Shown: piece by piece, positions 1,665 through 16,852 of the stretch | Layout: every line of letters starts with the position of its first letter | Numbering within the stretch: position 1 is the first letter of the stretch | Assembly: GCA_965232875.1 (NCBI GenBank) | Contig: OZ247431.1 | Coordinates: 1,720,376 to 1,784,375 of the forward strand | Source: Dehalococcoidia bacterium | GTDB lineage: Bacteria > Chloroflexota > Dehalococcoidia > Bin125 | Length of the DNA: 64,000 nt | Reading direction: 5' to 3' | Program-made: the position numbers and the translations under genes | Notes under the pieces: model-generated | The model's database searches: none | Seen by the model: the letters and a program-made list of their open reading frames with translations, nothing else | What the model was told of the DNA's origin: nothing

Positions 1665-2264
1665 TCAGTCCGTGAACGGCGACTCGACACCCGGCGGCAT
1701 ACCGACGTTGAATGTGTTCAGACCGATCGAAACCAATGCGTAGTAGCCCATCACTGAGGCAACTTCGAACACACCACTCTCGCCGATCATGTCATTCAGC
1801 GCAGCGTAAGTCTCGTCAGAGACACGCTGGTTCTCGATCAACTCTCGTCCGAACTGGTACACAGTCTGCTGCCGTTCGTCTCCGAAGTAGGGTTGCTCTC
1901 CGTCACGGATGGCGTCGATGGCGCCTTCCGAGACGCCGGCATTCTTCGCCAGCCGAGCGTGCGCCCAAAACTCAAAGTTGGCCCGCCAGTGACCACCCAT
2001 CGTGCAGATCGCGACTTCCAAGAGGTCGGACGGCAATGATGTGTTGTAGCGAATCGCGGCGCCCAGCTTCTGAACGGCGTCACCGACTTCCGGAGACAAG
2101 AACAGCGCATTGAACGGCCCGATCAGCGCCCCGTCGGCGCCGGCCAGCCCACCGTGTTCGCGATCAGGATTACCTCTTGGGCCTGTGGTGATGTTGTCCC
2201 AGAGCACGCGTTGGTTGTCATCGAGCGTGTCGAATGTCTGTGGTTCAAGTCGCGGCACGATCAT
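1665..2264 (-). CDS. Carboxymuconolactone decarboxylase (AhpD-like) family protein
   Basis: About 200 aa with a CMD-family-like sequence. Tightly linked downstream of the CoA-transferase gene. Confidence 0.55.
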   Translation of the reverse strand: MIVPRLEPQTFDTLDDNQRVLWDNITTGPRGNPDREHGGLAGADGALIGPFNALFLSPEVGDAVQKLGAAIRYNTSLPSDLLEVAICTMGGHWRANFEFWAHARLAKNAGVSEGAIDAIRDGEQPYFGDERQQTVYQFGRELIENQRVSDETYAALNDMIGESGVFEVASVMGYYALVSIGLNTFNVGMPPGVESPFTD

Positions 2265-2272
2265 TCCTCCGA

Positions 2273-4858
2273 TTAGTCGTTTGTGGATGCATCAGTTCGC
2301 ATGAACCGGGGCAAGAGCTCATCGGGATATGCGATGCCGACCAAACCCTTCGCTTCCAGCTCAGCGAGTTCGTCTTCCGAGTAACCAAGCAGATCGCAGT
2401 AGATCTCCCGGTTGTGCTCGCCGAGCTTTGCCGGCGGCGTACGCAGTTGATTAGGAGTCCGGCTCATGGTGAACGTCAGCCCCGGATAACGATGCGTGCC
2501 GACGCCTTCGATGGTCATCTGCTCGAAGAAGCCGACTTCGCGTAGATGCCGATCCGATAGCGCGTCGAACGGATCGTTCAGTGGCGCCGCGCAGATACCT
2601 GCGGCTTGCAGCTTGTGGAACAGGTCTTCCTTGTTCCAGACCCTGGTCTCCTGGGCGATCAATTCGTCCAGCGCATCCGAGTTGGCCAGGCGTCCCTCAG
2701 CGTTCGTGAAGCGAGTATCGAGCGGTGCATGAGCCAGATCAGACTGCACCGAAGCCTCGCCGAGACCGGCGGCCAGCGAATTGCAGAGTGTCACGAACTC
2801 GGTGTCGGAACCGATGTCGATGGCGATCCACTGATCTTCGCCGCGGCAGGGATAGACGCCGTAGGGAGCGCGAATGTGATGACTGTTGCCCTGTGACGGC
2901 GGATTGACGCCGTTCATCGAGTGCTGGAACAGATACTCCGCCAGCGTAGGTATGAAGCCCTCGTTCAGCGGCATTTCGATCTGTTGTCCGACGCCGGTCT
3001 GCTCGCGGTGTCGCAGCGCCATCAGCACGGCGACGGCGCCCTGCACACCCGAGAGGCCGTCGCTGGCCAGGGTTTCGCCAATTCCTTCTGGACCGCGGTC
3101 GGGATATCCGCGCAAGTGCGTATGGCCGACCATGGCCTCGACATGCAGCCCGAACGCGCGGTAGGTGGCATATGGACCCTCTAGCCCAAATGCCGGCATG
3201 CGCAGCATGATCAGCCTGGGGTTCACCTGCCTCACCTCTTCCCAGGTGATGCCTGCCTTGTCAATCGTGGTAGGTACGTTGTTTTCGACCAGCACATCGC
3301 ATTGTTCAATGAGTTTGAAGAATGCGTCGCGACCCTCAGGCGACATGATGTCGCAAGTCATCGATCGCTTGTTCCGAGCGTGAGAGTTGAATGAAGCAAA
3401 CCGGTTCCAGGGGTCATCGCCTGGTTCGGCATCGGGATATTGAGGCTGAACGCCGATCTCCGCGCCGCGCAGCATCGTCTCACGCGACTGGACGTTCTCG
3501 GCGCCTCGTGTGTATGGCTGAATCCGATTCACCGGTTCGACGTTGATCACGTCCGCGCCCCACTCGGCCAGAAGCTGCGCCACGTGCGGACCTGCCCAAA
3601 CCACGGTGATCGCCGCCACCCGAATCCCTTCGAGTGGCAAGTGCAAGGCGCTCAGCGGGCCCTCCGGCAGCGAATGGCGCGCGTCCTCGAGCGGGTCCGG
3701 CGGGGTCAGGTCGAGGACAACCCGCGAGTGCTCCCCGAGTCGCGGCGAACGCTTTGGCCGCGGCGGGTGAGATTCACTCATCCGGAACGGGAACCCGGGA
3801 TAGGGCAGCTCCGACCCATGCCAATGGGTAATGCGATGCCACCAATCTCGGGACTCGAGCTGTGGATCCTCAAGCACATCCGGCACCGTCATCACGGCTC
3901 CCGCCAACAGCCCGGCGGCCTGCGCCGAGGCCACTGCCTCAATCTTGCCGACATCGGCGAGGTGCGCCTCCACCGCTTCGTCAACCTTGGCGCCGAACCC
4001 CGATCCCGGGCGCGGGCCAGCCAGGAAGTCCTCGTCCTCGAGCAAGTCCTCACGCCCGATCCAGCGCAACAGCCTGGGCATCCGGTTGCCTGAGCCAACG
4101 ATGTTGACGAAGCCGTCGGCGCATGGGTACATGCCAAAGCCGACGAGGCGCCGGGTCGGTAGCGCGCGACCGGGGGCCACTCCGCTGTACTCGGCTGCCA
4201 CCAGTTGAATGGTTCGACGATCGCGGCAGCCGGCCTGGCAGCGATAAATCGAAATGTCGATCCAGTCACCGGCCAACTCGTCATTGGCGGCACGCTTGAG
4301 CGCAAGCAAGATGGCAAAGGCGGCCGTTGCGCCGGCGTGGTAGCCGGCATAGTGGCCAGCGACTTTGATCGGCTCTCGATCAGCGGCGCCGGTCGCGTGC
4401 AACGGACCGCCGATCGCCTGCATCGTGATCTCCGAGCCACGGTAGTCGCGATACGGCCCCGCTTGGCCGTACGGTGTGATCGAACAAAAGATCAGCTTGT
4501 GGTTGATCGCATGCAGCGTTTCCCAGCCCCATCCGGCGGCCTCCGCCTCGCCCGGCGGCAATGCTTCGATCACGACATCGACCAGTTGCGCCAGGCGCCG
4601 CACCGTGGCGCCGCCATCGTCGGTGTGCGGATCGAGCACGATTGACTGCTTGTTGGTGTTGAGATGCAAAAAGAGGCCGGAGGCCTCGGGGTCGGGCCGG
4701 CTGTCAGGAAACGGACCAAAGCGGCGCGAGGGATCGCCACCGCGAGGCTCCGCCTTGATCACTCTCGCCCCATAGTCGGCGAGCAGTTTCGTCGCGTACG
4801 GACCGGCAACGCCGCTGGTCAAGTCCAGTACGGTGATTCCCTCCAACGGACCGGCCAT
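2273..4858 (-). CDS. Fused tandem CoA-transferase family III (CaiB/BaiF-like) protein, two complete domains
   Basis: N-terminal half GITVLDLTSGVAGPYATKLLADYGARVIKAEP and second half GIRVAAITVVWAGPHVAQLLAEWGADVINVEP both match the family III CoA-transferase N-terminal signature. Total length 861 aa. Confidence 0.75.
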   Translation of the reverse strand: MAGPLEGITVLDLTSGVAGPYATKLLADYGARVIKAEPRGGDPSRRFGPFPDSRPDPEASGLFLHLNTNKQSIVLDPHTDDGGATVRRLAQLVDVVIEALPPGEAEAAGWGWETLHAINHKLIFCSITPYGQAGPYRDYRGSEITMQAIGGPLHATGAADREPIKVAGHYAGYHAGATAAFAILLALKRAANDELAGDWIDISIYRCQAGCRDRRTIQLVAAEYSGVAPGRALPTRRLVGFGMYPCADGFVNIVGSGNRMPRLLRWIGREDLLEDEDFLAGPRPGSGFGAKVDEAVEAHLADVGKIEAVASAQAAGLLAGAVMTVPDVLEDPQLESRDWWHRITHWHGSELPYPGFPFRMSESHPPRPKRSPRLGEHSRVVLDLTPPDPLEDARHSLPEGPLSALHLPLEGIRVAAITVVWAGPHVAQLLAEWGADVINVEPVNRIQPYTRGAENVQSRETMLRGAEIGVQPQYPDAEPGDDPWNRFASFNSHARNKRSMTCDIMSPEGRDAFFKLIEQCDVLVENNVPTTIDKAGITWEEVRQVNPRLIMLRMPAFGLEGPYATYRAFGLHVEAMVGHTHLRGYPDRGPEGIGETLASDGLSGVQGAVAVLMALRHREQTGVGQQIEMPLNEGFIPTLAEYLFQHSMNGVNPPSQGNSHHIRAPYGVYPCRGEDQWIAIDIGSDTEFVTLCNSLAAGLGEASVQSDLAHAPLDTRFTNAEGRLANSDALDELIAQETRVWNKEDLFHKLQAAGICAAPLNDPFDALSDRHLREVGFFEQMTIEGVGTHRYPGLTFTMSRTPNQLRTPPAKLGEHNREIYCDLLGYSEDELAELEAKGLVGIAYPDELLPRFMRTDASTND

Positions 4859-5712: not shown

Positions 5713-6030
5713 ATGTCAGTACGGGAGTGGATCAGTAGCAACGTCAGGTTCCTGATTGGCGCAGCCGTAACAGGTGTTGGCGTCATCGCGTGGTACAACA
5801 CCATGTGGTTCATGATTTCGCCCGGGTTGGATTTCACCGGGTTGCGGTTTCAGGCTTTGCTCTGGTTGTGGCCGATGTGCATCATCGTCGTCCTGACGGG
5901 ACTGCTGACACTACCTCCCAGCCGCGATCGTACAGCCGGTTGGTACTGTTTCGTGCTGTTAGCAATCGCCACCGCGATTCACGCACTCGTGCAGGGCTAT
6001 CAGTTCGACGAGCGGTTGCTCTGGTGGTGA
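5713..6030 (+). CDS. Small integral membrane protein (hypothetical), paralog of the upstream ORF
   Basis: Internal Met of track ORF 5530..6030. Hydrophobic, similar to 5330..5686. Confidence 0.4.
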   Translation: MSVREWISSNVRFLIGAAVTGVGVIAWYNTMWFMISPGLDFTGLRFQALLWLWPMCIIVVLTGLLTLPPSRDRTAGWYCFVLLAIATAIHALVQGYQFDERLLWW

Positions 6031-6051
6031 CATCAGCACCGCTCTGGCGCC

Positions 6052-7212
6052 TCAACGGCTGCGTCGCGCTTCCATACCCAGCAGAGGACGCGCGCCGGCG
6101 TCGAAGTTCCATTCCAGTGCTGCCCCGTGCTGGCGAGCCGTCTGCAAGTCTCGCCAACGTCGCTCTAGCGTCCATGTTCGACGAGCCGCCTTCGTTCCGC
6201 CGGCTCGGAAGAGCTTCTCGATCGCATCCACACATGCATGAACCGCATGCACGTTGGCCAGCCGGCATCTCCCGAGTAGCTTGGCGTCGGGAGCGCCTTG
6301 TTCGATAGACGGCCAGGCGGTCGTCCAGGCTTCCTGTACGAGGGCGCGGGCAGCCGAGACCTCGGCCTGGGCCCGTGCGAACGCGAGACGAAACGGCTCA
6401 CGCTCTCGCAATGCGGCTGTGTCTCCGGTTGTCGACTCTGACGCGACCGCGGCCAGATCGTCCAGCGCCCCTTGCGCGGCGCCCACAGCGTGTCCGGCAT
6501 TGGCAATCCAGGCCACCAGTGAACGGTCGGGCACGTTCCATTGCGGACCCTCGGCATATGGCGGATCCAACGCCGCCCAGGTATGCGCGTTCTGCACAAA
6601 CGCCCTGTCAACTTCCCAATCGTGGCTGCCCGTGCCCCTCAGACCCATCGCGTCCCATGTCTCAATGATCGTTCCCGCTCGTTGCGGCAGCAATGCAAAC
6701 CGCACGCAATCTTCAAAGTCCACGAACGTGGCCACGATGTAGGTCGCGTGCTCAACGCCGCTGACAAAGTTCAAGCGACCGCTCAATCGGTAGCCCGACA
6801 CATCCGGTTCCGCTGTCGTCATCACACGTGATGAGCCGACAATCCGGCAACTTGGACCGCCCGGCTCCTCGCCCCCGATCATCTGGCTCAACACTGGGTT
6901 CGGCAGATACGCCGCCAATAGGGACACCTCGGTGGCGATCATTACCACCCAGGCCGTCGAGGCGTCAGCATGCGCTAGCGCTTCGATGACGTGGAAGACG
7001 ACCAAGGGGTGCGCTTGCTCGCCGTAGCTGCGCGCCGGCAGATTCAACCGATACAGCCCGCGAGCCGTGATCGCTTCGATGATCTCACGTGGGACCGAAC
7101 CAGTTTCCTCAATCACATCCGCGCATTCGCGAATCATCGGCTGCAACTCGCGAGCCGCCGCAACGAGCGGATGATCCTCATACTGGGCGAACACGCTGGA
7201 GGATTGAGCCAT
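6052..7212 (-). CDS. Acyl-CoA dehydrogenase-like flavoprotein (type-2 ACAD / flavin monooxygenase-like)
   Basis: 386 aa with ACAD-fold-like sequence (…IIEAITARGLYRLNLP…). Confidence 0.65.
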   Translation of the reverse strand: MAQSSSVFAQYEDHPLVAAARELQPMIRECADVIEETGSVPREIIEAITARGLYRLNLPARSYGEQAHPLVVFHVIEALAHADASTAWVVMIATEVSLLAAYLPNPVLSQMIGGEEPGGPSCRIVGSSRVMTTAEPDVSGYRLSGRLNFVSGVEHATYIVATFVDFEDCVRFALLPQRAGTIIETWDAMGLRGTGSHDWEVDRAFVQNAHTWAALDPPYAEGPQWNVPDRSLVAWIANAGHAVGAAQGALDDLAAVASESTTGDTAALREREPFRLAFARAQAEVSAARALVQEAWTTAWPSIEQGAPDAKLLGRCRLANVHAVHACVDAIEKLFRAGGTKAARRTWTLERRWRDLQTARQHGAALEWNFDAGARPLLGMEARRSR

Positions 7213-7280: not shown

Positions 7281-8537
7281 TTGAAGGACCGAATGAGCAC
7301 TGAACGCAACCGAACGAACGATATGGCTCTACGCGAGCGGGCCAAATCCGTCATTCCCAACGGCATGTACGGACACCAGAACGCAGCAATCCTGCCTTCC
7401 AACTTCCCGCAGTTCTTCGCCAGGGGCGAGGGATCGCACCTCTGGGATGTGGATGGCAACGAGTACATCGACTACATCTGCGCCTACGGGCCAATCGTGC
7501 TCGGTTACCAGCACCCCGGCGTCGACCGAGCGATCGCAGACGCGCAGGATGTCGGCGACTGCATGAACGGTCCCTCGGAACAGATGGTGGAGCTCGCTGA
7601 ACTGCTCGTCGACATCACACCCTGGGCAGACTGGGCCTGGTTCGCCAAGAACGGCACTGACGCCACCGTCTACGCGGCATCAGTCGCCCGCACCGCGACC
7701 GGCAAGGGCACGCTTCTCCGCGCCCATAACGCCTACCACGGCGCCGCCCCCACCTGGATCACCGCGGGCGACATGACGCAACAGGCAGACGGCACCCTCG
7801 AGTACGAGTTCAATGATCTCGCCTCGGTCCGCTCAGCGATCGACGCAGCCGAAGGCGACGCTGCGGCCATCATTGTCTCGGCCTTCCGTCACGACGTTGG
7901 ACTCGACCAGGAAATGCCGACCGTCGAGTTCGCGCAGGGAGTACGCGATCTCTGCGACGCAAACAACATTCCGCTCATCCTCGATGATGTGCGAGGTGGC
8001 TTCCGCCTCGATCTCGCCGGCAGTTGGGCGCCCCTCGGCGTCGACCCAGACCTGAGCATCTACTGCAAGGCAATCGGCAACGGCCAACCAATCTCCGCCC
8101 TGATGGGACGCGAAAGCCTGACTGAAGCGGTTGCGAAGACCTTCGCCACCGGCTCCTACTGGTTCACCGGCGCACCAATGGCGGCGGCTCACGCAACGAT
8201 CACCACGCTGCAAGAAACCGACGGCATCGCGCGTATGGACCGGATCGGCAACGCCCTGCGAGAAGGTTGGCAGCAGGCCGCCGACTCCCACGGCGTCGGC
8301 ATCCGTCAAACCGGTCCAGTATCAATTCCGCTCATGCTGTTCGATGGCGACGATTTCTCAACCAGAGACGTCCCCCGCGCGTACCGCTTCGCCGCAGAAC
8401 TCGCCGACCGAGGCGTCTACTTGCATCCAGTCCACAACGGCTTCCTCTCAACCGCATTGGACGACAACGACATCGCCCACACGCTCGAGGCCTCAGACGA
8501 AGCATTCGCAGTCGTCGCCGCGGAGTTCGGGGACTAG
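7281..8537 (+). CDS. Class-III aminotransferase (glutamate-1-semialdehyde aminomutase-like)
   Basis: SVIPNGMYGH…SHLWDVDGNEYIDY…YGPIVLGY is typical of GSA-AT-like class III PLP enzymes. Confidence 0.75.
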   Translation: MKDRMSTERNRTNDMALRERAKSVIPNGMYGHQNAAILPSNFPQFFARGEGSHLWDVDGNEYIDYICAYGPIVLGYQHPGVDRAIADAQDVGDCMNGPSEQMVELAELLVDITPWADWAWFAKNGTDATVYAASVARTATGKGTLLRAHNAYHGAAPTWITAGDMTQQADGTLEYEFNDLASVRSAIDAAEGDAAAIIVSAFRHDVGLDQEMPTVEFAQGVRDLCDANNIPLILDDVRGGFRLDLAGSWAPLGVDPDLSIYCKAIGNGQPISALMGRESLTEAVAKTFATGSYWFTGAPMAAAHATITTLQETDGIARMDRIGNALREGWQQAADSHGVGIRQTGPVSIPLMLFDGDDFSTRDVPRAYRFAAELADRGVYLHPVHNGFLSTALDDNDIAHTLEASDEAFAVVAAEFGD

Positions 8538-8584
8538 GTCGTGTTCACTTGGATGTTGACAGCCCATGCTTGGCGCGCCAGCAT

Positions 8585-8640
8585 TCCCCGCTCCCCCTTG
8601 CAGGGGGAGCTGCCGAAGGCTGAGGGGGTCCCACTCCCCA
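8585..8640. repeat. G-rich palindromic intergenic repeat (CCCCCTTGCAGGGGGAGCTGCCGAAGGCTGAGGGGG)
   Basis: Related copies at about 39960-40060 and 55690-55900, sharing the CTTCGGCAGC core and CCCCTTGCAGGGGG palindromes. Confidence 0.7.
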
Positions 8641-8749
8641 TCGACAGACCTGTGTAACCTCCGTCCGCTGTTCCACACCAAGTGAACAGACGCCAGCAGT
8701 ATCCCGCTCGGGGACGTTGGTCGAAGGCTCATTGGGACCTCCAAAGGGA

Positions 8750-8785: not shown

Positions 8786-10465
8786 CGAAGAGAGGCGGCT
8801 TAGTGGGATCGATTGCGGGGATAAACGAAGGAGAGCGCGAACCCAACGCCGGCGCCCAGCATCGCGGCGGCTACAACCGATCGGCGCATGCTTGGGACCG
8901 ATTCGTTACTGATGTTGGCCACAGGCTCATCAGGCGGACGCAACTGGGCCCGAAGTTCCAGATCAAACACGTCCGACACGCCGTTCAAACGCACTGGTTG
9001 ACTGGGACGGGTCGAGATGGGAATGTCTCGCGCCGAGCTCACTACCGGTCCCGATGAACGCGACGCAATCGCCCTCTTCGGCTCGGGGCGCTCAACTGCG
9101 ACGGCGGCGGCGGGCATCCCCTCGCGACGCAGCCGAATCTCCTTCATCCGCAAGATGGCGAGCACCGAGACAAACACGATCGCCGCGGCCAGCAGGAAGT
9201 TGTCGGTGATCGCCGTCGCCACCGCCGCCTGCACCTGAGGCTCGGCGACTGTCCAGACCTCAGGGCCAAGGTCGTTCATCAAGTCTTCGCGGAAGATCGG
9301 ATCGACCAGCTTTTCCGGCTGCACTCTGTCCGCGACATCTGGCTCAAGACGCTCAGTCAGCCCGCTGGCCAGTCGGGCGTTGAACAGCGCCCCAATCACG
9401 CCAATCCCGATCACACCGCCCACTTGCTGGAAGAACTGCGTGAACGCCGAGACAATGCCCAGATACTTCTGCGGGGACGCATTCTGCGAGGCAATCGACA
9501 TCACCGGCATCATCAGTCCCATGCCAATCCCAAACAGGAACATCCGGCCCAGCACGCCGGGAATCGTGGTGTCACGTGTCATGGTCGAGAGCAGCAGCAT
9601 CGAGCTGAACATCATCAAGGAACCGGTTACGGCGAGGAATTTGTAGCGCCCGGTTCGAGACATCACCTGACCGGACACGACTGAGGCGAAGACCGAGACC
9701 AGGATCATCGGTCCCATGACCAGTCCGGCCGTAGCAGCGTCGGCGCCGAGTCCCACCTGCAGGTAAAACTGCAAGTAGACAAACACGCCCATCATGCCCA
9801 CGCCGAGGAAGAAATTCACAACTGCCGTCGTCGCGACGGTGGGGATCTTGAACAGTTCCAGCGGCACGATCGGCTGCTCGGCGCTGCGCTCGACCCGGAA
9901 GAAGAGGTACATCGCCGCCGCTGAGATTGCGAACAGCGCCAGCGTCTGAGGAGCGAACCAACCCCAGGTTGCAGCCAGGCTGAGCGAGATCATCGCCGGC
10001 ACCAGCGCCGTTGTCAGCAACACGACACCCTTGATGTCCAGACGGAACGGCTTCGGCGGAGGCCGTAGCCAGGGCATCTTCAATGCGATCACGAACAGCA
10101 CGATCGGACCCAGCGCCAGCATCACCCAGAAGACCCAACGCCAGGACAACGTCTCAGTCAGGACACCCCCGAGCGGCGCCCCGATCAAGCCGCTCAAGGC
10201 AAACACACCACCGAAGAGTCCGATAAACCGGCCACGGTCGGCGGGCAGGTACAGATCGCCAACGACTGAGAATGTGGCCGTCATCAGGATCGCCGCACCT
10301 ACGCCCTGCACGGCACGCGATCAGCTCATAGATGCCCGGCGCAAACCCGCACATCGCCGAGCCCAACAGGAAAATGATCAGACCGCCGAGCAACACCGGC
10401 TTACGGCCATAGATATCGCTCAACGTGCCGGCCACAGGAATCGTGACGACCTGCGCCATGATGAA

Positions 10466-10490
10466 GGGAATGAATCCCCAAGGTTGACAA
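10466..10490. repeat. Left terminal inverted repeat of IS1595-family element
   Basis: GGGAATGAATCCCCAAGGTTGACAA. Confidence 0.8.
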
Positions 10491-10535
10491 CCAGATAGGA
10501 TTTCTGTACCCTGAATACATCAGGGAGAGACAGAA

Positions 10536-11456
10536 ATGACCAACAAAGAACGCACCGGAATCAGCCTCATGCAGTTGGCCGACATGTTCCCTGACGAGGA
10601 TTCCGCCCGCGTCTGGTTCGAATCACGCATCTGGGGCGATGAGCGACATTGCCCGCGTTGCGGCTCCGATAAGACCGTCGAATCCAAGCACGCCAAGATG
10701 CCGTACTGGTGCACTGAGGGCCGCCACTACTTCTCGGTCAAGACGGGTACGGTCATGGAGTCGTCGAAGCTCCCGCTGCGCAAGTGGGTCTACGCCATCT
10801 ACCTACACCTCACGTCGCTCAAAGGCGTCTCGTCGCACAAGCTGGCGCGCGATATCGGCATCGGCCAACGTGCCGCCTGGTTCATGTTGCAGCGCATCCG
10901 GCAAGCGTTCGAGGAAGACAGCGGTGCGCAGTTCGGCGGTCCGGTCGAAGTCGATGAGACGTACATCGGCGGTCGCGAGAAGAACAAGCACTCAAGCAAG
11001 CGGCTCAAGCAGGGTCGCGGCACAGTCGGCAAGACGGCAGTCGTGGGGGCGAAGGATCGCAAGACCAAGCAGGTCAAAGCCAAAGTCGTCGGCAACGTTG
11101 ACCGCATGACGCTGCATGGATTCATCGACGACTACGTCGCGCGCGGCGCCCAGCTCTACACGGATGAGGCCACGGCCTATCGCGGCGCACGTATGAACCA
11201 TGGCGCGGTCAGGCACTCGGTCGGCGAGTACGTGGACGGGATGGCGCACACGAACGGGATTGAGTCGTTCTGGGCGATGCTCAAGCGCGGCTACATCGGG
11301 ACGTATCACCAGATGTCGGCGAAGCACCTGCATCGCTACATCTGCGAGTTCGCAGGGCGTCACAACGTGCGGCGGTTGGACACGGCGGAGCAGATGGGCG
11401 AGCTGGCGTCGGGGATGCAGGGCAAGCGCCTGACCTACGCGGAGCTGATCAGTTAG
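10536..11456 (+). CDS. IS1595-family transposase (N-terminal zinc-ribbon + DDE domain)
   Basis: GISLMQLADMFPDEDSARVWFESRIWG…CPRCGS…YWCTEGRHYFSVKTGTVMESSKLPLRKWVYAIYL…TSLKGVSSHKLARDIGI is the hallmark IS1595 transposase N-terminus. Confidence 0.9.
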   Translation: MTNKERTGISLMQLADMFPDEDSARVWFESRIWGDERHCPRCGSDKTVESKHAKMPYWCTEGRHYFSVKTGTVMESSKLPLRKWVYAIYLHLTSLKGVSSHKLARDIGIGQRAAWFMLQRIRQAFEEDSGAQFGGPVEVDETYIGGREKNKHSSKRLKQGRGTVGKTAVVGAKDRKTKQVKAKVVGNVDRMTLHGFIDDYVARGAQLYTDEATAYRGARMNHGAVRHSVGEYVDGMAHTNGIESFWAMLKRGYIGTYHQMSAKHLHRYICEFAGRHNVRRLDTAEQMGELASGMQGKRLTYAELIS

Positions 11457-11785
11457 ATACCACCAAGCCCCAGGCGCTTCGTGAGAACATCACTTCGCTC
11501 TTGTAGCTGTTCGCGCTCGCGAAGCAGACTGGCGAGTTCGGCCGGCTTGGGAAGAACGAATGGATGGCCAGGTCGCGAGTCATCGAGAAAATTCAGGTCC
11601 AGATTGTTGCCCTCACCGTCGATCCCAAACGCGCGACTCGAATTCTCACGACATGCATCCTGGGCATATCTGAACACCTGTCCATACTCGTCGAGCTTAT
11701 CCTGGACACATCTCAGAGTCCGTCCAGCGTCTTGGAGCTCTCTGAGCATTTGGCCTCGTCGCGCGTCTTCTTCTTTGGCGTTCAT
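11453..11785 (-). CDS. Hypothetical 110-aa passenger protein inside the IS1595-family element
   Basis: Intact ORF in AT-richer DNA. Immediately downstream of, and co-oriented with, the HExxH passenger gene. Confidence 0.4.
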   Translation of the reverse strand: MNAKEEDARRGQMLRELQDAGRTLRCVQDKLDEYGQVFRYAQDACRENSSRAFGIDGEGNNLDLNFLDDSRPGHPFVLPKPAELASLLREREQLQERSDVLTKRLGLGGI

Positions 11786-11845
11786 CCTCTTACCCTTCGC
11801 TACTGCCCTGAGCTTATTCCTTTCTTCGTTGCTGCCTCGCCCCGT

Positions 11846-12529
11846 TCATTTGATCGGGTCGTAGACCACGCCTTCGCAGACGTTCAGGCCAAGCCCAGCC
11901 TCGACCACCCAACCGCACTGTGACACAGGGTCATACAGCCCGAGCAGGTCCAGCATCCATGCCAGCACATCCACCCATGTGTGCGAGTGCATCGAGGGTG
12001 GCTTACCCAAGATCTCCCAGTCCGCATGATGAGCAAACTCATGAAGAATCGGGAAGATCAGCAGCTCTTCAGGATTGAACACCAATGTGGTGTTCCCACC
12101 CTCCCGGATCGCACAGGCCAACCCGTGAGCAGGACAACGGTCGAAGTTCGTCGACACTCTCGGAACCTGGATACCCAATGCGTCGGCCATGCTCGCCACG
12201 GCCACCCTCGTCTCGGCCATCGTTCGCGGCTCATACAGGAAGTCGATCGCCTCCGCGCCGATCAAGTCGCACCCCTGCGTGAACGTCAAGGTGTTCAGGA
12301 ACAACGCCTGGACGGTCTCCATATCGCGCACACTTGAGAAATCCCGTTTGCTGTGGACTTCTGCAAGCCTGGTCCGAAAATTTTCAGCGGGATAGCCGAG
12401 ATCGGGACAATCGACTGCAACGATTGGCGGGGGTTCAGGCTCGACGTCTAACTCGGCCGGGACAATGCCGGCGCTCAGTGCGAGCAACAGGTACCAAAGG
12501 AGAGCGAGAGCGGGTGTGATCCAAGCCAT
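11846..12529 (-). CDS. Secreted HExxH (zincin-like) metallopeptidase-like passenger protein
   Basis: N-terminal signal peptide MAWITPALALLWYLLLALSAG. HEFAHH motif followed by further His/Glu residues. Several Cys. Located within the IS boundaries. Confidence 0.5.
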   Translation of the reverse strand: MAWITPALALLWYLLLALSAGIVPAELDVEPEPPPIVAVDCPDLGYPAENFRTRLAEVHSKRDFSSVRDMETVQALFLNTLTFTQGCDLIGAEAIDFLYEPRTMAETRVAVASMADALGIQVPRVSTNFDRCPAHGLACAIREGGNTTLVFNPEELLIFPILHEFAHHADWEILGKPPSMHSHTWVDVLAWMLDLLGLYDPVSQCGWVVEAGLGLNVCEGVVYDPIK

Positions 12530-12792
12530 GATGTGTTCCCAACTGCCTGCGTCGTAAGTTGGAGAACAGGGCGTACGGCAAATGGATCACGTGGTCGGAG
12601 GACGGCGGCGAAGGCAGATGGGGTACGAGGCACAGGGCCCCCTTCTTGGCGACGGACTGAGCTGTCGCCAAACAGAGATCAAACCGTCTGTGTGCCGAGA
12701 AGGGGACATCAGGACACCTCAATCCGCAAGGTCGACACATTGCCGGCTGCGATCTCTGTTTGGCAGGGGCAGGCTAGGGAGCTAGAATCAGA

Positions 12793-12817
12793 CTGTCAAC
12801 CTTTAGGCTTTATTCCC
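12793..12817. repeat. Right terminal inverted repeat of IS1595-family element
   Basis: CTGTCAACCTTTAGGCTTTATTCCC, reverse complement GGGAATAAAGCCTAAAGGTTGACAG. Confidence 0.8.
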
Positions 12818-13189
12818 ATGATGAAGGCCTGCACCAGCCAGGGATACAACTCGAGCCCGCCCAGCTCCGAGACGATCTGCGGCATCGCCGGATTGACCAC
12901 GCTCTGCTCGAGCGAGGCCATGAACATGCCCAACATCGCGCTGATGATGATCAGCCGCTTGGTCCGCTTCGGCAGATCAATGCCCAGCGGGCGCTGCTCG
13001 TCGGGCGACGCTTGGGGATCGGCAGAGTCGGTGTGGACGGACACGTAGAACTGTTTCGGCTGCGCGAACTAACCCTCAGGGTACGAAGCTGCGCGAATGC
13101 GGGCTAGTCGCAGCGACTCGGGAGCGCATTCGACCGAGTGCTAACCTGATTACATCTCCCGCATCCTCGCTGACAGGAAGGTAAACGCC

Positions 13190-14371
13190 ATGGCCGAGAT
13201 GATCTGTGATCGCATCAAGGTGATCGACTCTGACACCCACGTTTCCGAGCCGGAAACGCTCTGGACCGACAGAATTTCCACTCAGAAATGGGGCGACCTC
13301 GTCCCCCACGTGATCTTCGATCCCGAGATCAACGAGGACCGCTGGGTCATGGGCGGCAAGAAGTTCATGCCCACCGCCGGCGCCGCGATGGCCGGCTGGA
13401 AGACTCCGCCGCCGAACCACCCGCCCAGCCTCAAGGAAGCCGACCACGGTAGCTGGGAAATCCACGAGCGCCTGCAGCGCATGGACGAGTACGGCATGCA
13501 CGCCCAGGTCGTCTACCCGAACGTCGGCGGCTTCGGCTCCGGCAACTTCCTGCAGATGACCGATGACGAGCTGCGCCTCGACTGTGTGCGCGCCTACAAC
13601 GACTTCCTGGTCGAGTGGACCTCGGTCGAGCCGTCGCGCTTCATCCCGATCATGGCGATGCCCTTCTGGGACGTGCAGGCCTGCGTCGACGAGATGCAGC
13701 GCGCCTACGACCGCGGGCACCGCGGTGTGTTGATGACTAACCAGCCGCACACCTTCGGACTGCCGCGCATCACTGAGCAGCACTGGGATCCGCTGTGGAA
13801 TCAGGCGCAGGACATGGGCCTGTCGATTAACTTCCACATCGGCTCCGGCGACCTCACCGAGCTGCGCAACGTGACCGTCGACAACGGCCGTCAGGCCGCC
13901 TACGCCAAATCGACCGTCAAGCTGTTCCTCGACAACTCGAACGCCATTCTCGACGTGATCCTCTCCGGCATGTGCCACCGCTTCCCAGAGCTGAAGATCG
14001 TCTCGGTCGAGTCCGGCGTTGGTTGGATTCCCTACCTGCTCGAAGCGATGGACTGGCAGTGGCTCAACTCCGGCTGCCGCGAAGAGCACCCGGAGATGGA
14101 CCTGCTGCCCTCTGAGTACTTCAAGCGCCAGTGCTACGGCTGCTTCTGGTTCGAAGAGGACTCGGTGCTCAAGGCAATCGAGTCGTTCGGCTCCGAGAAC
14201 TTCCTGTTCGAGACCGACTTCCCCCACCCGACTTCGATGTCGCCGGGCCCGAACTCAGTCGCCCGCAACCCGAAGGAGCACGTCGAGGAAGTCCTCAGCG
14301 TCCTGCCCGAGGAAGACCTGCTCAACGTCCTCCAACGAAACGCCGCCAAGGTCTACAACTTCGAGGTGTAG
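13190..14371 (+). CDS. Amidohydrolase-2 family metal-dependent hydrolase/decarboxylase (ACMSD/LigW-like)
   Basis: VIDSDTHVSEP…(HxH-type metal ligands), 393 aa, typical PF04909-like organisation. Confidence 0.75.
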   Translation: MAEMICDRIKVIDSDTHVSEPETLWTDRISTQKWGDLVPHVIFDPEINEDRWVMGGKKFMPTAGAAMAGWKTPPPNHPPSLKEADHGSWEIHERLQRMDEYGMHAQVVYPNVGGFGSGNFLQMTDDELRLDCVRAYNDFLVEWTSVEPSRFIPIMAMPFWDVQACVDEMQRAYDRGHRGVLMTNQPHTFGLPRITEQHWDPLWNQAQDMGLSINFHIGSGDLTELRNVTVDNGRQAAYAKSTVKLFLDNSNAILDVILSGMCHRFPELKIVSVESGVGWIPYLLEAMDWQWLNSGCREEHPEMDLLPSEYFKRQCYGCFWFEEDSVLKAIESFGSENFLFETDFPHPTSMSPGPNSVARNPKEHVEEVLSVLPEEDLLNVLQRNAAKVYNFEV

Positions 14372-14531
14372 TCGGCCTCACAAACCGGTTTTGAAACTTC
14401 GGGTCCGAACCGCGGTTCGGGCCCGAAGCGTAAACCTCGTGGCACGTGAGAAACATCGCTCCCGATACTCTACGGATTCAAGGGACCTCAGAACATTGAG
14501 GTTCTTCCCGAGGGTGGAAGAAGGAGTCGTC

Positions 14532-15131
14532 ATGGTATTTCGCTTATATGCTGGGGCCTCAGGCGCTTTGACACAAGGCTGGCACGTGGACTGCGATCCA
14601 GACAGGGATCCTAGCGAAGCAATGGCTATCGACATCGGTGCCTCAGTCGGAGACACCGTTCGCTTCCGAATCTACAACGATGGCTCGATTCCAATAACGT
14701 TTAGGTACCGAGTAGACAACGCAACTTTTCCCAGGGGAGTGACATCGTCCGTGATGGTAGAGGTTGATTCCGGGCCCACTAACTACGTTTTTCGATACAC
14801 ACACTTAGACGTTGAATCCACTATACCGGACGGTAGCTGGAGCGGTTACACCGCCGTACAGGCTGGCCAAACAGCGGGAAAGATTGTTGGAACTGTATCA
14901 GACGTATACAGTGATCTCGACTACTTGGGATACGCGGTGGTGGAGGGGAAGGAGACCTGCAAGAAGTCCGGCGGAACAACTGACGTGGGCGGACTTTGCT
15001 CCTCCGGGCCTCACCTACACCAGGCCGCTTCGGATGGATATACTGACCCTTGCCTAGCGCCCGGTGCCGCGCCAAGCAAAGGGTCGATCCCAAGCACCCT
15101 AAATGGTGGGACAGTGGTGTTTTCAGTCTGA
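14532..15131 (+). CDS. Hypothetical protein (about 200 aa) with weak M23-peptidase-like HxxxD … GPHLH motifs
   Basis: Strong RBS AAGGAG. AT-richer patch. WHVDCD and SSGPHLHQ motifs. No signal peptide. Confidence 0.4.
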   Translation: MVFRLYAGASGALTQGWHVDCDPDRDPSEAMAIDIGASVGDTVRFRIYNDGSIPITFRYRVDNATFPRGVTSSVMVEVDSGPTNYVFRYTHLDVESTIPDGSWSGYTAVQAGQTAGKIVGTVSDVYSDLDYLGYAVVEGKETCKKSGGTTDVGGLCSSGPHLHQAASDGYTDPCLAPGAAPSKGSIPSTLNGGTVVFSV

Positions 15132-15164
15132 GCTTGTGCTGCCGGTTGAGATCGGGCGCTGCAT

Positions 15165-16133
15165 ATGGCGATGCGAACAGTCTCGTGGCTCGTCGCAACA
15201 GCCTTCTTGACCTTGCTCATGACCGCGTGCGCGAATGCTCCAGATGATGATCTCGCACGGCTGGAGCGAATCACGCTGGAGGGTACAAATGCGCTGCCTC
15301 GGTTCTTACATGTTTATGATGCCAAAGGCCAACTTGTTGTAACATGGCTGAGCGATCGCGGGCCGATTGGCTGGATAGAAGATCCAGAAACACTCCTGTT
15401 TATTGGATCCACGTCCCAAGGAATTGAATTAGTTACTGGTGATCCCAGTGACGCTACGACATACCGTCTTGCATCTCACGTCCGCGGCTTTGTGAGCGTT
15501 GCGGATCAACCCGATATGTTGATCATGGAGGATGGTGATGAAGTACGTCAACTGCCTCTGCCTGGCCGCTTGGTAAGATCTGCATATCCACCAGGATTCG
15601 AATACGCGGCGGGGCCACTGCGTGTAGAAGACGAGGAAGTATGGTTTGGCGAGACACGGCTCCTCGCCAATCGCGGCCTGACGTTCGCCTTGCTCGCTTC
15701 ACCCAGCGGTCGGTGGGTGGTCGTGTTGGAGATGCAAGGGCACGGTTCACGCATCGAGTACCGTCTCAGCGCTGGTGAGGACGTACCGCAGGTTGTTGTC
15801 GTTCCGGATGACGCACCCTTATCTGAAACGCCATCGCCCTCGGCCTTGTCACCACTCGGGACCAGAGTTGCGCAAGTCGAGCCGCTACGGACGTTGCTCA
15901 ACTATCGTGACGGGGTGTTGCTCTGGCACGATCCAAACGGCGGTGATCCTGATGTGTGGTGGTCCCCCGACGGCAGCTACTTCACGTACTTCTCCTGGGA
16001 CGACCGTCTGATGGTTGCCGACCAGGACGGCCAGGTGCGTGTCGCCCTCCGAGGTCTCCGGCGACACCAGTTCCGCGGCTGGAGCGGAGATGCCATCAGC
16101 TGGCGCATTTGGACAGTCGGCGGGCATCCGTAG
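15165..16133 (+). CDS. Lipoprotein with PD40/TolB-like beta-propeller repeats
   Basis: Signal peptide plus lipobox LLMTAC. WSPDGSYFTYFSWDD-type repeats. Confidence 0.55.
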   Translation: MAMRTVSWLVATAFLTLLMTACANAPDDDLARLERITLEGTNALPRFLHVYDAKGQLVVTWLSDRGPIGWIEDPETLLFIGSTSQGIELVTGDPSDATTYRLASHVRGFVSVADQPDMLIMEDGDEVRQLPLPGRLVRSAYPPGFEYAAGPLRVEDEEVWFGETRLLANRGLTFALLASPSGRWVVVLEMQGHGSRIEYRLSAGEDVPQVVVVPDDAPLSETPSPSALSPLGTRVAQVEPLRTLLNYRDGVLLWHDPNGGDPDVWWSPDGSYFTYFSWDDRLMVADQDGQVRVALRGLRRHQFRGWSGDAISWRIWTVGGHP

Positions 16134-16207
16134 TTGCCCCGAGCCAAGTCGCCCACTGCCGACTTGTTTGTCCTTATCCTGAGGCGAAGCGGAATTTGAG
16201 GGCGTCT

Positions 16208-16804
16208 ATGACAACTGAGACCGGGCTCCTGACCGCTTGCGACCTGCTGCGCCTGCACAGTCAGGGCGTTCGCGGCGAGCTGATCCGGGGAGTCCTCATC
16301 GCGCGACAACCAGGCGGGATCGAGAGCGGAGCGATCATTGCCAACTTCGCAATGGAGCTCGGCAATTTCCTGAATGACAAGCGCGTCGGTCGAGGCGCAG
16401 TCGGATCTGGCTATTGGCTGGAACGTGACCCGGATACGGTTCGCGAAGCCCAAGTCGGCTACATCTCGTCGGAACGACTACCGCTGCACCAACGATGTAC
16501 CGGCTACGCCGAAGTTGCGCCAGACCTGGTGGTGGAAGTACAGGGCTTCAACCGAGAATGGCTTGAGGTCAACGACAAGGCCCGCATGTGGCTCAGCTTC
16601 GGCGTGCGATTGGTCTGGGTCGTGCGTCCGAGGGATCGCACGGTCGATGTCCATCGAGCGGGACGCTTGACGGAGTCGATTGGCGAAGATGGCGACTTGG
16701 AGGGCCTCGACGTTCTGCCGGGGTTCAGGTGTTCGTTGGCGTCGATCTTCGGCCCACAGGCTATTCAGGCCTCTCGACGGGGCATTCGCTACACTGCCGA
16801 TTGA
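16208..16804 (+). CDS. Uma2-family (DUF820) putative endonuclease
   Basis: Size and …APDLVVEVQ…WLEVN…MWLSFGVRLVWVV… pattern typical of Uma2 proteins. Confidence 0.65.
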   Translation: MTTETGLLTACDLLRLHSQGVRGELIRGVLIARQPGGIESGAIIANFAMELGNFLNDKRVGRGAVGSGYWLERDPDTVREAQVGYISSERLPLHQRCTGYAEVAPDLVVEVQGFNREWLEVNDKARMWLSFGVRLVWVVRPRDRTVDVHRAGRLTESIGEDGDLEGLDVLPGFRCSLASIFGPQAIQASRRGIRYTAD

Positions 16805-16852
16805 ACTGAAATCCGCAGGCGCGCGTGCGCCTCACAGAGAGGAACTCGAACG

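Follow-up and report, generated by a model that had tools for sequence, protein, structure and literature searches.

The stretch of DNA analysed here, called the window below, comprises 64,000 nucleotides (nt) of contig OZ247431.1 (assembly GCA_965232875.1, positions 1,720,376 to 1,784,375, forward strand) from a Dehalococcoidia bacterium of the Chloroflexota. In it, an efflux gene of the major facilitator superfamily (MFS) is interrupted by an element of 2352 bp, which on direct reading of the region occupies 10466-12817. The element carries an IS1595-family transposase gene (10536-11456, plus strand) and, on the opposite strand, two passenger genes, open reading frames (ORFs) of 110 and 227 amino acids (aa) named ORF110 (11453-11785) and ORF227 (11846-12529). 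It is very probably a tIS, the named class of passenger-carrying insertion sequences (IS), of the IS1595 family: a single unit with 25-nt terminal inverted repeats (IRs), a transposase with a zinc ribbon and a DDE(6)K pattern, and two opposite-strand passengers, which moved whole into the MFS gene.

The ends of the element can be fixed to the base. An earlier note on this DNA had claimed an insertion of 2352 bp, flanked by an 8-bp direct duplication and bounded by 25-bp inverted repeats; the length is exact, and both kinds of repeat are present. The target-site duplication (TSD), ATGATGAA, stands on both sides (10458-10465 and 12818-12825). The left repeat, IR-L, is GGGAATGAATCCCCAAGGTTGACAA (10466-10490, plus strand), and the same IR is found in two related elements, L001 and L002; the right repeat, IR-R, is GGGAATAAAGCCTAAAGGTTGACAG (12793-12817, minus strand, reading from 12817 to 12793). 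IR-L and IR-R are identical at 20 of 25 positions and both begin GGGAAT, giving termini of GGGAATGAA / GGGAATAAA. Short terminal repeats with a 5'-GG start, conserved in the relatives, together with an 8-bp TSD on both sides, are what characterizes IS1595 elements. The exact direct repeat at the flanks is 10 bp long (CCATGATGAA), because IR-R ends in ...CCC and the left flank by chance reads ..CC. The 8-bp reading is preferred because only 8 bp gives symmetric GGGAAT termini, and it also fits the 8-bp duplications of the relatives. A 10-mer common to both IRs, AAGGTTGACA, occurs at these two sites only in the 64-kb window (0.07 expected by chance). With A/T at six of its eight positions, the target site ranks in the most AT-rich 2.3% of the 8-mers in the 62%-GC MFS gene. 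No internal IR, IR remnant or second duplication was found inside the element. A composite transposon, with two IS copies around the cargo, was considered and rejected: the element has one transposase gene only, and the IR motif stands at the two ends only.

The interrupted gene agrees with these boundaries. It is read from the minus strand, with its 5' fragment (codons 1-73) at 12826-13044, its 3' part, which matches PF07690, at 8800-10457, and codons 74-76 (F-I-M) within the target duplication. When the element and one copy of the duplication are removed, the frame is restored as ...YPWLVQAFIM|AQVVTIPVAG..., the junction that had been read at the outset. The reconstructed protein, used as a query, brought up orthologues of equal length with no interruption (P0122, with 629 aa, 97% identity and 100% query coverage; several others at 94-96% identity). 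The junction peptide LVQAFIMAQVVTIP is invariant, with no indels, in nine orthologues down to 82% identity. An empty site was seen directly in the orthologous contig L086, where the string GCCTTCATCATGGCGCAG is uninterrupted at position 4217; the DNA there reads ...GTGCAGGCCTTCATCATGGCGCAGGTCGTC..., with a single TTCATCAT, the reverse complement of ATGATGAA, and the whole 2352 bp is missing. The join expected of an empty site was thus found intact. The flanking aminotransferase, amidohydrolase and thiolase genes are collinear with L086 at 92-94% nucleotide identity, and the insertion therefore sits in ordinary, core-like chromosome. As for the type of transporter, the first description (DHA2-type MFS) holds clearly for the superfamily and is borderline for the subtype: MFS_1 is clearly matched and the sources label relatives 'MDR family MFS transporter', and the DHA2 profile TIGR00711 scores P0122 at 221.5 bits, just under its curated cut-off of 230.2, so that the gene is called EmrB/DHA2-like here.

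The MFS gene also carries a second lesion. Relative to L086, 5 bp are deleted at about 10317-10320 (GAGCTGATTGCGTTCCGTGCC changed to GAGCTGATCGCGTGCC), about 140 bp downstream of the insertion in the direction of the gene, and the frame is shifted at a place where all orthologues read ELIAFRAVQG. The 5 bp are lost between short CGT repeats, and the change has the look of a true mutation rather than of a sequencing error in a homopolymer. Being doubly inactivated, the gene is a decaying pseudogene; this suggests either an insertion of some age or one into a gene that was already defunct.

The left half of the insertion holds, as first noticed, an IS1595 transposase, 306 aa long and intact. The protein matches PF12762 (DDE_Tnp_IS1595; E = 8.1e-40, 136.8 bits, cut-off 27) and the NCBIfam model NF033547, 'IS1595 family transposase' (193.7 bits, cut-off 75). 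The match to the zinc ribbon PF12760 (Zn_Tnp_IS1595) is marginal, at 25.3 bits against a cut-off of 25.4, and the ribbon is counted as present. When the protein is aligned with 21 homologues (64-88% identity), the zinc-ribbon residues C39, C42 and C59 are invariant and H52 is conserved. D140, D210, E243 and K250, assigned as catalytic residues by motif spacing and not by structure, are also invariant and form the D-D-E(6)K pattern; E271-x3-R275 is nearly invariant. None of the residues invariant in this alignment is altered in the window protein, its dN/dS against relatives is 0.14-0.18, and the gene looks functional as judged from its sequence. A -35-like TTGACA box lies in IR-L (10484-10489) and TACCCT follows 17 nt on (10507-10512), both facing the transposase gene. 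The closest relative found is 88% identical, so that the element would merit a new IS name; in the plasmid collection, identity is at most 44%. The element is probably ISNwi1-like: in the ISNwi1 group of ISfinder the ends read ggnnatTAT, the transposase has a DDEK+ER4 signature and members with passengers measure 1.75-4.75 kb, and this clade is consistent with these features.

Related elements were collected in a scan of one genome per species, which returned 80 loci, mostly in metagenome-assembled genomes (MAGs) of Dehalococcoidia/SAR202, Alphaproteobacteria, Rhodothermales, Acidobacteriota and Gemmatimonadota. About 50 of them could be delimited by a script that required both an IR pair and an exact 8-bp duplication; the shortest have 1053 bp and no cargo, the longest about 5 kb. 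Their ends follow GGG(A/G)(A/C)TTA...GGTTGA (e.g. GGGAATTAT, GGGACTTAT or GGGGATTAT). The combination of IR and TSD accordingly recurs in other copies: perfect 8-bp TSDs of their own flank L001 (2663 bp, CTTTCAAA), L002 (2669 bp, CAAACAAA), L090 (2120 bp, TTTTCAAG) and L094 (2716 bp, TTTCCAAA), and about 45 more elements behave in the same way. The closest homologues, with transposases 86-88% identical and nearly the same IRs, are L001/L006 from a Dehalococcoidia MAG, which share the L001 duplication, and L002-L004, which share that of L002. Across the clade (about 48 delimited elements, L001-L094) the TSDs are 78% A+T and follow WWWNNWWW, most host genomes being GC-rich; sites like TTTCGAAA, TATCGATA and CTTCGATA recur.

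In nearly every delimited element, 0.6-4 kb of DNA separates the transposase stop from the right IR. Genes for DNA modification and restriction predominate in this cargo. Among its larger ORFs, Pfam identifies an N6_N4 DNA methyltransferase (MTase)-HNH nuclease fusion in L002 (7188-8582), L007 (6226-6939), L052 (5945-7483), L060 (5968-7338) and L068 (2234-3700); an MTase with an IceA-type nuclease in L027 (5903-7250); N6_Mtase with or without a type I S subunit in L032 (6117-8495) and L071 (5917-8726); an Mrr_N protein in L011 (6780-7268); TnpB in L083; a nested IS4-like transposase in L047; and many ORFs without a family. In L006, the closest relative, the MTase-HNH gene is split into two ORFs. 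The DNA of the window element is homologous to that of the MTase-HNH relatives only at element positions 1-981 and in the last 25-29 bp, the middle being replaced. With the sister element L090 the homology extends over positions 16-1378 (the transposase gene and ORF110) and the last 61 bp, and an unrelated 178-aa signal-peptide protein takes the place of ORF227. In L093, whose transposase gene has 86% nucleotide identity, an L090-type signal-peptide protein (79% identical) stands behind a different small ORF. Since L090, L093 and the window element combine them differently, the transposase gene, the small ORF and the exported-protein gene reassort. The L093 element itself (1810-3815) has good IRs and flanks of TTTGGAAG and TTTCTTAA, with no duplication; its contig has 1x coverage, and read errors or recombination between two copies could account for the lack.

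The right half of the window element had been described as carrying two extra, intact, AT-richer ORFs. Both are intact; their AT-richness is true but modest, with a GC content of 55% for ORF110 and 59% for ORF227 against 62% for the transposase gene and the window, and a third-position GC (GC3) of 0.55 and 0.71 against 0.84 for the transposase gene and 0.77-0.89 for host genes. This lower GC3, and cargo that differs between otherwise close elements, could be taken as signs of capture in the manner of ISEcp1 or IS91, in which the element skipped its own right end, used a surrogate IR and carried host DNA along. Such an origin is highly improbable, because IR-R is an authentic, conserved end, which matches that of L001 at 24/25 positions and persists across unrelated cargo. 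There is, moreover, a single transposase gene with no internal IR, the latter also disfavouring a composite origin, and the syntenic region of the orthologous contig contains nothing that corresponds to the cargo. The passenger-carrying tIS that transposed between its own two ends is the reading kept here.

ORF110 and the transposase gene are convergent, with an overlap of 4 nt at the transposase stop; in the source genome a 98-aa version of ORF110 is called. The cluster to which it belongs at 90% identity includes a 110-aa protein present on 12 further contigs, and those contigs (L090-L092) hold the sister element at an unrelated locus. In L090 the arrangement is identical, with ORF110 at the same position and an aa identity of 92% for ORF110 and 87% for the transposase. 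ORF110 differs between the window and L090 by 19 synonymous and 10 non-synonymous changes, a dN/dS of 0.14, the same as for the transposase gene; it is a real gene under purifying selection. The comparison shows ORF110 to move with the transposase as a selected gene. Its AlphaFold (AF2) model predicts a helical hairpin (helices 3-47 and 81-104), and a fold search gave generic coiled-coil matches only. Neither ORF110 nor ORF227 has a match in Pfam, NCBIfam, PADLOC or PHROGs, or by tblastn in all fetched loci, the rest of the window and plasmids.

A small ORF of 72-110 aa lies convergent with, and immediately downstream of, the transposase gene in every close relative (window 11453-11785; L093 2816-3133; L094 5930-6244; L007 5924-6229; L002 6970-7188). 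Homology among these ORFs (110, 105, 104, 101 and 72 aa) was considered and rejected: BLASTP gave no significant match and MAFFT no convincing motif, and only those of the window and L090 are detectably homologous. They may represent a fast-evolving accessory protein or a coincidence.

ORF227 is far rarer. A word-indexed search of 5.8 billion clusters returned only itself, and an exhaustive HMMER search of 1.84 billion representative proteins found three distant relatives (41%, 36% and 28% identity). The closest, P0242, lies on a contig of 1172 bp with no IR or transposase visible. In ORF227 and the three relatives H163-E164-x-x-H167, H181 and four cysteines are invariant, and a hydrophobic N-terminal signal or anchor is present in ORF227 and its closest relative. 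The AlphaFold model (mean pLDDT 67.8, core 80-93) has the core of a minimal zincin-like metallopeptidase (HEFAHH...H), and the viral models similar to it are IrrE-N-like and SprT-like proteins. With HExxH, a third metal ligand and a zincin fold as modelled, ORF227 looks like an exported or membrane-anchored minimal zincin metallopeptidase, similar to SprT, Wss1 or abylysin. The closest known proteins are SprT/Spartan, Wss1/WLM, the minigluzincins (proabylysin, projannalysin and selecase) and ImmA/IrrE. The resemblance is at the level of fold: no significant match to the SprT-like, WLM or ImmA-IrrE Pfam families was obtained, and ORF227 reached no family threshold. SprT, Wss1 and IrrE act on DNA-bound or cytoplasmic substrates, whereas the N-terminal signal or anchor and the four invariant cysteines of ORF227 suggest an extracytoplasmic protein.

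Between ORF227 and IR-R lies a conserved, structured leader of the cargo transcript, about 150 nt long (12631-12775, minus strand). IR-R contains an inward -35-like TTGACA (12799-12794), and TAGCCT (12776-12771) follows 17 nt downstream, facing the cargo; a TAGNCT/TAATCT box is found at the same spacing in L006, L002, L090 and L093. About 185 nt inside IR-R is conserved among sister elements, comprising the TTGACA of the IR, a TAGCCT/TAGCTT box and the leader. Homologous leaders occur in L090 (5243-5390, plus strand), L093 (3619-3773, minus strand) and L094 (6281-6426, plus strand), the last found as a fourth, independent copy (86.9 bits) by a covariance model built from the other three. In this family, a 14-pair helix joins the anti-Shine-Dalgarno (anti-SD) strand CCCCUUCUCGG to the Shine-Dalgarno (SD) sequence GAAGGGGG just before the start codon. 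In the window, CCCCUUCUCGG (12705-12695) pairs with AAGAAGGGGG (12647-12638).

Of the cells in the four aligned leaders, 87% fall in pairs; when the partners are slid, the share is 39-54%. Double changes are seen at eight pairs, and at one or two in the slid controls; these figures come from four related sequences, with the structure derived from those same sequences, and are suggestive only. The fold of the window leader has z = -2.3. Rfam returned only sub-threshold chance hits on 10300-13000 and no family for the leader, and a generic sigma-70 scan gave one outward-facing site, no more than chance expectation. From its pairing pattern, the leader is a candidate for a new cis-regulatory RNA, one that might keep the ribosome-binding site (RBS) covered. 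The genes behind it differ: ORF227 in the window, a 171-178-aa protein in L090 and L093, and a protein of about 290 aa in L094, an unrelated signal-peptide protein whose leader-bearing unit has the opposite orientation and does not adjoin IR-R. One could go further and regard the IR-R side as a transposon-borne expression platform, with an IR-borne -35 box, an SD-masking leader and swapped exported-protein genes, the leader being a new RNA class and ORF227/ORF110 an exported-protease module spread among Dehalococcoidia-type bacteria. This extension is speculative and, as a whole, unlikely.

The leader also bears on how the cargo was assembled. In the window it ends at the usual start codon, GTG 12633, which opens a 52-aa ORF (12475-12633) out of frame with ORF227, and the ATG of ORF227 lies 105 nt past this GTG, behind a weak RBS. 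The mismatch looks like a recombination scar from the arrival of ORF227. A plain IS1595 element of about 1 kb might accordingly have inserted first and gained its passengers, at least ORF227 with the 105-nt upstream segment, in situ by recombination or insertion, so that the 2352-bp unit never transposed whole. The scar-like start would fit this history, as would the demonstrably mosaic cargo of the window element, L090 and L093. Several observations weigh on this side against whole-unit transposition. ORF227 is in no other IS and may have been acquired after insertion. No second copy of the exact element is known from a collection of 15 billion proteins, in which the transposase and ORF227 occur on one contig each, and scans of JGI metagenomes with the ORF227 family alignment and the IR pattern GGGAATRAAKCCYMAAGGTTGACA returned nothing; looking up the window transposase by exact sequence gave no contig record. 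The identical copies that the earlier note had proposed to look for were not found in related genomes, and its expectation that IR and passengers move together held for ORF110, through the sister element L090; ORF227 is known from this copy only. On the other hand, the transposase-ORF110 backbone and the IR-R-proximal leader are common to sister elements at other loci with TSDs of their own, so that a cargo-bearing ancestor certainly transposed; the element contains no remnant of an internal IR or second duplication; and elements of the clade as a rule carry cargo in this slot. Gain of the passengers in situ is therefore quite improbable, and transposition of the complete unit is preferred.

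Whether this copy is still active is a separate matter. The five mismatches between its IRs and the second lesion of the target gene count against a fresh insertion: the copy may be old and is possibly no longer mobile. In the extreme case it would be a decaying, immobile relic whose cargo ORFs are hitch-hiking remnants without current function. Its occurrence as a single copy, the mismatched leader and upstream ORF before ORF227 with its weak RBS, the age suggested by the 5-bp deletion, and the contrast between IRs matching at 20/25 positions and the 22/22 of the MTase-HNH relatives all speak for such decay. Against it, the transposase ORF is full length with all invariant residues kept, the dN/dS of ORF110 and the transposase gene is about 0.14, and ORF227 retains every residue invariant in its small family. 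IR mismatches are also no sure sign of decay: L090 and L093 have four each, at the same central positions, yet the TSD of L090 is intact. A relic in this full sense is possible but doubtful.

A passenger-carrying IS1595 element belongs to an already named class, and the present one is a clean, fairly ordinary example. In the passages of PMC3129680, PMC11891212 and bioRxiv 10.1101/2021.05.26.445724 that cite it, the tIS class is traced to the description of the IS1595 family by Siguier et al. 2009. The family is described by 8-bp duplications, a single transposase, an N-terminal zinc finger and a C-terminal DDE domain (PMC8101967), and the window element shows all of these features. It also has the arrangement of a tIS, with ORF110 and ORF227 between the transposase gene and IR-R and no second transposase. 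The original identification as a passenger-carrying member of the family is thereby confirmed, and none of the outcomes named in advance as speaking against it was seen, so far as these were checked. Like the tIS of the ISNwi1 and ISNha5 groups, the window element combines one zinc-ribbon and DDE transposase, GG-starting IRs, an 8-bp duplication and passengers with no role in transposition between the transposase gene and one IR, in relatives of 1.7-5 kb. Unlike them, it has the IR GGGAATRAA...GGTTGACA and a rare zincin and helical-hairpin cargo not reported before.

Comparison with its nearest kin and with other mobile units shows where the element differs. The cargo-less copies L015-L017 (1053 bp, Rhodothermales MAG) share a transposase of 64% identity, ends of GGGAATTA...AAGGTTGA and AT-rich 8-bp duplications; their transposase stop lies about 40 bp from the right end, whereas the window element has 1361 bp of cargo and leader in between. 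The MTase-HNH and restriction sisters (L001/L006, L002-L005, L007, L052, L060 and L068; L027 with MTase and IceA; L071 with N6_Mtase and S) have transposases 78-88% identical, near-identical IRs, the same cargo slot and orientation, and an inward TTGACA-17-TAnnCT box at IR-R. Their fusion gene starts about 50 bp from IR-R, in contrast to the leader of about 290 nt in the window element, which has no DNA-modification gene. ISEcp1/IS1380- and IS91-type units, composite transposons and mobile insertion cassettes resemble it in the IS-driven movement of adjacent non-transposition genes; they depend on surrogate ends, on two IS copies or on no transposase, whereas the window element has one transposase and two authentic IRs.

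In the proposed mechanism, the transposase would bind the conserved GGGAAT...GGTTGACA ends, move all DNA between them and cleave an AT-rich target with an 8-bp stagger. The whole 2352-bp unit would thus have entered codons 74-76 of the MFS gene in a Chloroflexota/Dehalococcoidia-type genome, duplicating 8 bp and inactivating the gene; the 5-bp deletion would have been acquired afterwards or have been there already. We know of no experimental determination of cut-and-paste versus copy-paste transposition for IS1595 elements. Each IR is predicted to supply an inward -35 box, that of IR-L driving the transposase gene and that of IR-R the cargo, and the SD-masking leader may act as a gate on cargo translation. 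Because the cargo has the same orientation as the interrupted gene, transcripts started at the MFS promoter might also run on into it. ORF110 may be a helical partner of ORF227 or an accessory protein. The simplest reading of the differing combinations is that cargo modules are swapped by recombination between related elements within a shared backbone.

Some observations concern other relatives and the surroundings of the insertion. An IS1595-type element in L083 (4913-7161; Dehalococcoidia MAG CBDCEF010000004.1), also found in L084, has perfect IRs and the TSD ATAGATAG. Its sole cargo is a 403-aa TnpB (OrfB_IS605 and Cas12f1-like TNB), encoded on the strand that also carries the DDE transposase gene, and the TnpB ORF runs into IR-R, with its stop 5 bp from the element end. 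No paper on a TnpB carried by an IS1595 element came up in a literature search; should its guide RNA lie directly against the end of the IS, a DDE transposon would here have co-opted an RNA-guided nuclease. L047 (8311-9513) and L048, on the same Alphaproteobacteria MAG contig, are two copies of one tIS that differ by 1.3 kb in length, L047 having an extra, nested IS4-like transposase gene (DUF4372 and DDE_Tnp_1) within the cargo region. The window and L086 also differ at two small synteny breaks. At 8537-8745 the window is without the DUF559/MTES_1575 endonuclease-like gene that L086 has between the MFS and aminotransferase genes (5945-6487). At 14368-16828 it has about 2.46 kb where L086 has a Uma2 gene only (1922-2678); this segment contains two ORFs with no Pfam match (14502-15128 and 15165-16130) and a Uma2 gene (15956-16801).

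Delimited to the base and paired with an empty site, the element offers a clean reference for passenger-carrying IS1595 elements in an uncultured Chloroflexota lineage, one of a group poorly represented among curated IS. What goes beyond routine is the rare zincin cargo, the reassorting modules and the candidate SD-sequestering leader and, in the relatives, the frequency of restriction-modification genes and the TnpB element. The very rare zincin and its helical partner behind a structured leader are a modest lead, not a discovery. The comparison set shows that cargo is the rule in this clade and often consists of restriction-modification genes, and that close relatives swap it and keep the transposase and IR-R sides. 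This is useful for the annotation of MAGs, where such cargo would otherwise pass for chromosomal genes, and it bears on how small transposons spread defence, surface or exported functions.

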